DNA of 7,705 bases. Source: a virus (lineage: Duplodnaviria > Heunggongvirae > Uroviricota > Caudoviricetes). Below are positions 6,001 to 7,705 of this stretch, piece by piece. The position numbers are program-made. The stretch lies in IMG/VR virus record IMGVR_UViG_2690316318_000009, positions 1 through 7,705 of that record. One strand, written 5' to 3'. Within the stretch, counting starts at the first letter, position 1; every line of letters begins with the position of its first letter.

Positions 6001-7705
6001 GTGTGGTTGATGGTATGTTGATGATGTTGGATATCACACTTGAGATGGATTCGATTGTAATGGTATTTGATTAATATCATTTTTTTCAAAAGCGCGATAA
6101 AGAGAATAGCAGAGAATTATGAAATAATTGGGGTAAGTATGTTTAATAAGACAATTGTTTTAACTTTGCTAACATGTTTGTTTTGCTCTTCTGTCGCGGA
6201 TGCGAAGCGCGGTGGGCATAGGCGCTCATATCATCGTTCGCATACTTATCATTATAAAAATAATGAAGAGAGCAAACTAAGAACCTGCTCGGGAAGATAT
6301 GTTGATTATTATGGAGTTTGTGATGAAAAAATATGGAAAATAGTGAAAGTCCAAAACCTGTTACCACGAAAAAAAAGATACAAAAAGTAAGTGGTAAGGC
6401 ATCTAAAGTTGAAACTAGTTTATCTGACTCGCAAGTGAGAACCGTGTACCCACAGGAAAAGCCCAAACCTACTTGTGCTCCATTGTATATGGCTCACAAA
6501 CCTGGTTATACAAATTTGCCCATATGTGTTGATGGTCAATATTAATTACTTGGTTAGGTGTTTACGATCGTAAAAATCAGAGTATCCTGTTAAGAGTGGT
6601 TACTTCGCCACACAACTTAAACCCGCCTCTGAGCGGGTTTTGTCGTTTCTGAAGGATTTATATGAAAGAGATTAAAATTGCAGCACATCAATGTGTCTTA
6701 CCCGCTAGAATTCGATTTACATTTTCTACTTCTGGAGAAACTAAAGAAGAAGTGATTGAAAAGATGAGAATCGTCATCGATCAGCTTAGTAAAGACGAGG
6801 TCCATCTTGATCCATATGTACATCTTGAGAGTTATCTATCAGGCGTGAATATATCTTGCTCCCCCGCCTGATAGGTTAATTGTTTATTATTCCATTACCA
6901 TCTTGCCGATCTGTGCGGGAAGCGGGACAACATACTCCCAGAACGGTTCGTTAGAAGCGATGCCTGACCAGTACCAGATTGCTTTTGTGAAGATTATTGC
7001 TGCGTTATCTGTTAATGAATCAATGTCAAGAAGTCTCATATCACCACGGTGAATATTTGTATTATCACCTGCCAGTATTTCATAAATAGGTTGCGGCCCA
7101 TCGTGTTCACGATAATTTTCTCTAAAATAATTCGCATCCTCTATCTTTTCACAGGCGAATATTGACTGGTATCTGGATGGTTTTGTTGGGAACTGAAGCT
7201 GACGAACCAGTTCAACAATAAGCTCCATGAGATCAGTGCTGGTTAGGTCTCTTCTCGGAAACAGGTATCGTAAACCATGTTCAGCGATTTTGAAATCAAA
7301 CTTCGCCCCAATAGGACCATCAACAATGTAGCTATCAGTTACAGGCGGCACTATAGAAGAAAAATTCATTAATGTATTTGCATTGTATCTGCCTCTTCTG
7401 TCAGCAGAATAAAGCACTATGCCCATTTAACTCTCCTGATTTGATGTAGTTACTTTTGGCGATGTAACGATATCAAGCGCGAGGTTATACCGCCAGATTC
7501 TTAATCTGGCACTTCATCTGGCCCGGGTATGTACCGGTTTTTTTATTTAAGGCCGCTGACAGGTCCATTTAGTGCAACGTCTTTCCCCGTTTCCGCTCCT
7601 GGAATATTCGGGGATTTTTTATTCCCTCAATTTGCACCCGCGATATGTGCGAGGTGAGAGATGATGAAATGCCTCATAACCCAAATACCTGGCCGGACTG
7701 GCTGG

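Follow-up and report, generated by a model that had tools for sequence, protein, structure and literature searches.

A DUF2441 gene of ADP-ribosyltransferase fold and a small convergent partner form a cargo module between Q and the lysis cassette of a lambdoid virus

What is the protein of 179 amino acids (aa) that a lambdoid virus encodes, against the direction of late transcription, between its antiterminator gene Q and its lysis cassette, and what might it do for the element that carries it? We addressed this question in a stretch of 7,705 nucleotides (nt) of viral DNA (Caudoviricetes; IMG/VR record IMGVR_UViG_2690316318_000009, positions 1 to 7,705), hereafter called the window, which as a whole comprises a lambdoid nin/Q region followed by the beginning of a lysis cassette. 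In the open reading frame (ORF) listing the gene occupies 6887..7426 on the minus strand and starts with ATG. Direct reading finds a Shine-Dalgarno sequence, AGGAGAG (7431..7437, minus strand), 4-6 nt ahead of the ATG, and its GGAGA core is retained in diverged copies of the gene. The G+C content (GC) of the gene is 0.41-0.42, compared with 0.50-0.56 for the left part of the window (the nin region), so that the strong Shine-Dalgarno sequence and low GC described in the initial annotation of this DNA are both borne out. The left landmark of the slot is Q (5640..6074, plus strand), which has 87% DNA identity to the Q of phage 434 and is 100% identical to a 127-aa PF06530 gene in the related loci L001-L004; the true Q start is likely further inside the listed ORF. 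The right landmark is the start of a lambda-family holin gene (PF05106; 7669..7705, plus strand), cut by the window end and recognized from megablast matches annotated 'phage holin, lambda family'; position 7669 was obtained from the 242-nt distance to the start of the 179-aa gene in L001, which is the same throughout L001-L004. Between the end of Q (6074) and the start of the holin gene (7669) there are ~1.6 kb without lysis genes, in agreement with the interval of at least 1.6 kb claimed earlier. ARAGORN found no tRNA in this gap, and no Rfam RNA was found there at E ≤ 1; in Shiga toxin (Stx) phages the Q-to-lysis gap holds tRNA or other RNA genes.

The initial annotation could not place the protein in any family by motif inspection, and this is the claim that our searches overturn. 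The protein passes the Pfam model DUF2441 (PF10386) with 28.8 bits against a curated cut-off of 25 (E = 1.4e-6, residues 61-154), a model also matched by 145 of 146 aligned relatives, and it matches phrog_5663, a function-unknown family, at E = 1e-53. A remote-homology comparison of the homologue profile with solved structures returned one match, 2AUA (E = 1e-8), the crystal structure of BC2332 of Bacillus cereus, available since 2005 and deposited as a hypothetical protein. The 179-aa protein shares the three-dimensional structure of 2AUA, which is the solved member of DUF2441. Pfam places DUF2441 in its ADP-ribosyltransferase (ART) clan (PMC7955679), and 'BC2332-like' is SCOP family d.166.1.6, among the ADP-ribosylation families (PMC3000352). 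The protein has the fold that defines the ART superfamily (Pfam ART clan; SCOP d.166.1), and we regard both the DUF2441/BC2332-like family and the ART fold as settled. In addition, ProFunc matched the site of 2AUA to the catalytic sites of diphtheria toxin, exotoxin A and cholix toxin (PMC3024214), and RES/ParT/MbcT-type ART-fold toxins are among the structural neighbours of the 179-aa protein. Weak matches to other ART families (Pfam at E ≤ 10, 146 relatives) amounted to one Arr-ms hit at E = 0.08, the rest being noise, and a BFVD fold search returned only uncharacterised phage proteins. The protein has no match in NCBIfam, and PADLOC matched neither it, nor the small neighbouring ORF described below (orf69), nor four other members of DUF2441. 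No housekeeping or structural phage family was matched. Family membership supplies a fold without a mechanism, because BC2332 itself has no known function: a literature search on DUF2441 and BC2332 found no paper with a tested function, or with NAD+ (nicotinamide adenine dinucleotide) binding or ADP-ribosyl transfer, for any member. The earlier suggestion that this gene has an undescribed function therefore stands.

The reality of the ORF is well beyond chance, because an identical copy of the protein turns up on contigs from 88 blocks of a public collection, the frame is kept in homologues of 71-99% identity with pairwise ratios of nonsynonymous to synonymous substitution rates (dN/dS) of 0.09-0.18 at dS values of up to ~1.7, and a profile made from 11 homologues retrieves 1,794 related clusters (50% identity) at E ≤ 1e-3, 825 of them at E ≤ 1e-10. 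The gene is under purifying selection and clearly conserved as a coding sequence. Escherichia albertii and Salmonella are the sources of homologues at 99, 87, 86, 81, 80 and 73% identity, and the source names of the 99%-identical proteins point to E. albertii. Among the best 150 of the 1,794 clusters, nearly all members are single-domain proteins of about 170-220 aa. The gene was found in none of 5,426 complete E. coli genomes, sensitive blastn included, and 999 of these genomes match the query solely over the holin-proximal 170-265 nt. The presence of the holin side without the gene in these 999 genomes implies that the DUF2441 gene is an insertion relative to otherwise related late regions. 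A scan of genome contigs, restricted by its search patterns, gave matches in two metagenome-assembled genomes of Clostridia. A 6.5-kb viral contig, L005 (IMGVR_UViG_2695420514_000014), matches window positions 2036-7705 at both ends and runs beyond the right end of the window; each of the eight window proteins tested has a 100% identical counterpart there.

Conservation across the family points to a candidate active site. Counted over 159 aligned family sequences, R75 and R85 are present in all 159, E164 and W153 in 158, G51 in 157, H50 in 144, R10 in 141 and S88 in 136, while position 129 is D in 141 sequences and N in 17. E72, S84, M130, Y152 and G155, like H50 and G51, are kept at ≥ 90%, and the window protein carries all of the family-conserved residues counted. 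In our reading of the sequences and predicted strands, H50-G51, S88-x-F90 and W163-E164-Y165 are collinear with H21-G22, F53-Y54 and V147-E148-Y149 of diphtheria toxin, and both proteins have a helical insert ahead of the Glu strand. Judged from these motifs, a catalytic H50/S88/E164 arrangement at the ART motif positions is plausible, as are an alternative R-S-E-like site consisting of R10 (at the end of strand 1), S88 and E164, and an Arr-like use of D129. The initial annotation had noted the lack of an R/STS/ExE pattern, and in this it was correct: the classical R...STS...ExE signature of the R-S-E mono-ART toxins (cholera, C3 and pertussis type) is absent, with Q-S-I-F in place of STS and F-W-E164-Y in place of ExE. 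A conclusion that the protein is not an ART does not follow from this, because the protein has the ART fold and conserved H, S, D and E where ART motifs fall. Profile alignments of the family to diphtheria toxin, ARR-2 and AcrIF11, for which two reference sequences were checked against the PDB, are at chance level apart from a sole local hhalign match to ARR-2 that aligns D129 with Arr D84 at a probability of just 0.5%, and for this reason we treat the catalytic residues as candidates. The invariant charged residues together with the ART-site match of BC2332 nevertheless make it likely that the 179-aa protein is an active NAD+-using transferase.

The gene is accompanied by a small partner that is missing from the initial annotation. 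This ORF, orf69 (69 aa; 6662..6871, plus strand; phrog_11414, E = 6.5e-27), converges with the DUF2441 gene, leaving 15 bp between the two stop codons. Each of the 19 close loci (L001-L019) has orf69 next to the DUF2441 gene, even where the DUF2441 proteins are 71-82% identical and the outer flanks differ. The divergence of orf69 parallels that of its neighbour, with 62-99% identity across copies and a dN/dS of 0.12. orf69 belongs to a narrow family of E. albertii and Salmonella, and its predicted structure is poor (predicted local distance difference test score, pLDDT, 66.8). The junction of the two genes contains a 10-bp inverted repeat (6836..6874) with the stop codon of orf69 inside it and, on the plus strand, a T-rich run after it. 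The repeat folds at -20.2 kcal/mol (z -3.8) on the plus strand and at -18.1 kcal/mol (z -2.7) on the minus strand, and is likely a terminator common to both convergent genes.

On its other side the DUF2441 gene moves together with an upstream region of ~110-120 nt (7427..7548, minus strand) that is conserved among diverged copies: a block of ~110 nt is kept even where the gene is just 74-82% identical and the outer flanks are unrelated. The DUF2441 promoter presumably lies within 7427-7548; our scan returned no consensus sigma-70 promoter upstream of the gene, and a TTGATA box found by hand (7471-7476, minus strand) lacks a credible -10 element. The block contains a conserved hairpin or palindrome, GCCAGATT-N3-AATCTGGC (7492..7510), whose 8-bp stem folds on both strands and is retained in the 74-82% identical copies while the loop and inner pairs vary, suggesting either a structure in the 5' untranslated region or an operator. 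The outer edge of the block is a short GC hairpin on the plus strand (stem 7523-7537, T-run 7538-7546), which is a better terminator in other copies. The left edge of the module is an intrinsic-terminator-like hairpin from the terminator scan (6619..6640, plus strand; 8-bp stem with a T-rich tail) that closes the preceding cargo gene, and the same scan found a third terminator-like site at 7597-7613 (plus strand). Between Q and the holin gene the late-transcript strand has, in total, three hairpin and T-run elements (6619-6640, 7523-7546 and 7597-7613), each standing after one cargo unit. A Q-modified polymerase would have to pass all three, and the gap has the look of several cargo units in a row, each with its own boundaries. 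The DUF2441 gene and orf69, which stand as an insertion among conserved phage genes and are missing from related phages, behave as an autonomous moron, and the proposal of a cargo gene in the Q-to-lysis slot holds in the form of an accessory moron antisense to late transcription.

We compared the surroundings of the relatives. Prophages that encode the identical protein have P22-like, lambda-like or HK97-like structural modules, and in all of them the gene stands between Q and holin on the opposite strand. In another lambdoid prophage a 35% identical relative, also antisense, is flanked by the lysis and terminase genes. Relatives of 36-40% identity occur in BcepMu-like transposable prophages of Salmonella, Klebsiella, Enterobacter and Citrobacter, in the order repressor, Dam methylase (in most loci), DUF2441 gene and holin. 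The DUF2441 gene is co-directional with the lysis genes there, so that antisense orientation is no general feature of the module. The idea in the initial annotation that Q read-through might silence the gene during lytic growth, with expression from a promoter of its own in the lysogen, is at this stage a conjecture. The DUF2441 gene of these BcepMu-like prophages also faces a small convergent ORF, called or annotated at 79-107 aa. Profile-profile comparison (hhalign) of the orf69 family with these ORFs gave a probability of 59% (E = 9e-5), BLASTP of orf69 against the 79-aa ORF gave no match, and the best non-training match of a joint hidden Markov model among 7,578 ORFs was a convergent ORF right after the DUF2441 gene of a Yersinia plasmid (E = 0.42). 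From these comparisons, conservation of the partner ORF is likely for Enterobacterales elements but does not extend to the entire DUF2441 family, most distant relatives being without it. A 53-aa convergent ORF beside P0010 was considered as an orf69 relative and rejected, as it belongs to a different PHROG.

The BcepMu-like block with the small convergent ORF was seen in L027, L030, L036, L039 and L040 (Salmonella, Klebsiella, Enterobacter kobei and Citrobacter freundii), and two of these prophage copies, those of E. kobei and C. freundii, are on plasmids. We also noticed that the GenBank entry 'Klebsiella phage KP12 clone KP12_2' has a Mu-like layout, yet its taxonomy line reads Vequintavirinae.

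Outside these prophages, DUF2441 relatives are carried by Gordonia phages, between the tail genes and the integrase/immunity cassette; as cargo of a Tn7-like transposon, beside NERD and DUF6602; in an integrative and conjugative element (ICE), adjoining a RES protein and a large helicase; and in an island with PIN, HicAB, AAA_15 and EAD1-trypsin genes. Further relatives are on plasmids and conjugative elements, and a few are in ordinary chromosomal surroundings. In none of the DUF2441 contexts examined did we see a macrodomain, ADP-ribosylhydrolase (ARH) or Xre partner. In RNA-seq of uninduced cells, a Salmonella DUF2441 gene is seen as a transcript that is regulated individually (PMC9867438).

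The many mobile-element carriers, the solitary genes without an antidote and the conflict-type neighbours together argue for a function that sets element against element or element against host. The reading that we rank first, and hold tentatively, as a possibility somewhat short of probable, is that the protein is an NAD+-dependent ADP-ribosyltransferase that would serve the prophage in exclusion or defence in the lysogen. We place lysogen exclusion or defence first because transcription appears independent of the late operon and is, here, opposed to it, the gene lies beside immunity regions in Mu-like phages and actinophages, some neighbours are defence-like, and the Salmonella transcript is present without induction. 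According to this proposal, a compact standalone ART-fold enzyme together with orf69, the upstream block and the flanking hairpins would make up a self-contained moron between Q and the lysis cassette, and the DUF2441 gene would be transcribed independently of Q. The protein would bind NAD+ in a pocket of H50-G51, Y54, E72, R75, R85, S88, D129, Y152-W153 and E164, and would pass ADP-ribose to a specific target rather than poison the cell. The prophage might thereby be served in conflicts with other phages or mobile elements, the most plausible action being modification of a component of a superinfecting phage. A more ambitious version, in which DUF2441 and its convergent partner would constitute a new two-gene ART system of lambdoid and BcepMu-like temperate phages that acts on a new kind of target and excludes rival phages or disarms host immunity, is conceivable but on balance doubtful.

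A close rival, although we consider it rather unlikely, turns the direction of the effect toward the host: an anti-defence or host-modifying ART would inactivate a host immune component or re-tune a host protein for the benefit of the carrier element. AcrIF11 ADP-ribosylates Cas8f, and Alt, ModA and ModB of T4 modify host proteins. The standalone character of the DUF2441 protein would suit such a role, as would the orphan methylases that DUF2441 genes adjoin and an ArdC-like gene near which they are found, and AcrIF11 is the nearest characterised structural neighbour. However, the sequence is unrelated to that of AcrIF11 (hhalign probability 0.2%), no aca-type helix-turn-helix gene stands in an operon with the DUF2441 gene, in lambdoid phages the gene runs against the late operon, and relatives are also found in defence- or toxin-antitoxin-like islands and Tn7 cargo. 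The constant company of orf69, in 19 of 19 close loci, diverging in step and under purifying selection, raises instead the idea of an abortive-infection-like toxin/antidote pair, in which DUF2441 would be a toxic ART or NADase restrained by orf69, or by an overlapping antisense transcript, until infection. The possibly homologous convergent ORFs in BcepMu-like prophages and, more distantly, the Yersinia plasmid match would fit a conserved antidote, and the RES/ParT/MbcT-type toxins among the structural neighbours would fit the toxin. We nevertheless judge this pair improbable: protein antitoxins do not usually have a convergent arrangement, a partner ORF is lacking in most distant relatives, the small ORFs show weak homology to one another, the orf69 model is poor, and there is neither a macrodomain, ARH or Xre partner nor a PADLOC match.

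The fold might also have outlived its chemistry, leaving a catalytically inert regulator or decoy that works through binding. Neither the H-Y-E nor the R-STS-ExE signature is literally present, position 88 is Ser and not Tyr, and BC2332 has H-N in place of H-G, all of which would agree with such a protein; yet R75, R85 and E164 are kept across ~1,800 diverged clusters, as is typical of an active site, and the BC2332 site was matched by ProFunc to toxin catalytic sites. Loss of catalysis consequently appears to us a slim possibility, slimmer than the toxin/antidote pair. Least likely among the readings considered is an enzyme working outside conflict, on small molecules or nucleic-acid ends, either Arr-like (acting on an antibiotic or anti-phage metabolite) or Tpt1-like (removing an RNA phosphate). 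Sequence similarity to the Arr/ARR-2 rifampin ADP-ribosyltransferases (2HW2, 9IAF, 9IBA) is at chance level, and in comparison with Arr the DUF2441 family has an additional invariant Glu (E164) and an N-terminal extension, with no link to antibiotic resistance seen.

Other cargo lies near the module. A gene at 4170-5129 (minus strand) encodes a 319-aa outer-membrane protein with a signal peptide and a match to Pfam LpxR, the lipid A 3'-O-deacylase family (E = 6.8e-40). The gene runs antisense to the phage genes in a low-GC patch (0.31-0.43), with a phosphatase gene on one side and Q on the other, and resembles a further moron, distinct from the first, whose product could remodel the lipopolysaccharide of the lysogen. 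The first gene after Q (6139-6545, plus strand) is a 135-aa signal-peptide protein in related prophages (L002) and has no Pfam or PHROG match. Its A-tract at 6326-6331 has six A residues in the window and in L005 as against seven, which splits the gene into two overlapping ORFs and could reflect a pseudogene, slipped-strand variation or a sequencing error. In the nin regions of related prophages we found a 500-aa SNIPE/T5orf172 nuclease-like gene, a serine recombinase and a HicAB pair beside the DUF2441 module. Variable cargo loci of these prophages are at 13654-15156 (plus strand) in L002/L003, 13987-15513 (minus strand) in L001 and 1564-2201 (minus strand) in L010, and none is in the window.

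Phage-host and element-element conflicts have time and again been found to involve ADP-ribosyltransferases as weapons, among them DarT, CmdT, AcrIF11 and T4 Alt/Mod. The large standalone DUF2441 family has this fold; a structure has been at hand since 2005, its activity is unassigned, and it recurs as cargo in lambdoid and Mu-like prophages, actinophages, plasmids, ICEs and a Tn7-like element. An uncharacterised ART-fold moron as such will not surprise a specialist; what is newly seen here is the conserved orf69 partner and the conserved ~110-nt block upstream of the DUF2441 gene. The two genes, of 540 and 210 nt, offer a compact experimental handle on the whole family. If the two-gene system were real, it would provide the first function for a family of ~1,800 clusters, and if no activity were found, the module would be one more uncharacterised prophage moron.

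Comparison with known systems sets the module apart from each of them in some respect. BC2332 (2AUA) is ~21% identical to the window protein, is longer (224 aa) and has H-N where the window protein has H-G. AcrIF11 (6KYF), an anti-CRISPR ART of phages and plasmids, superposes over 74 residues with no detectable sequence relationship; it has a classical H-G-S first motif, and the window gene lacks an adjoining aca-type regulator. Unlike the diphtheria-toxin group (diphtheria toxin, exotoxin A and cholix toxin, with H-Y-E), the window protein has no translocation or receptor domains and no signal peptide, and DUF2441 has Ser for the motif Tyr; the family is carried by mobile elements as cytoplasmic cargo and is not a secreted toxin. 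In contrast to the ART toxin-antitoxin systems RES-Xre, ParST, MbcTA, DarTG and CmdTAC, the window gene has no co-oriented antitoxin, no macrodomain, Xre or chaperone partner and no PADLOC match, and most DUF2441 members are solitary genes. The stx genes of Stx phages differ in orientation: the DUF2441 gene is transcribed against Q-dependent late transcription and, unlike stx, cannot be a Q-driven late gene. In other respects the gene resembles such morons, with the same Q-to-lysis slot, a GC below that of the neighbours, hairpin and T-run elements of its own on the flanks, and a patchy presence in related prophages.
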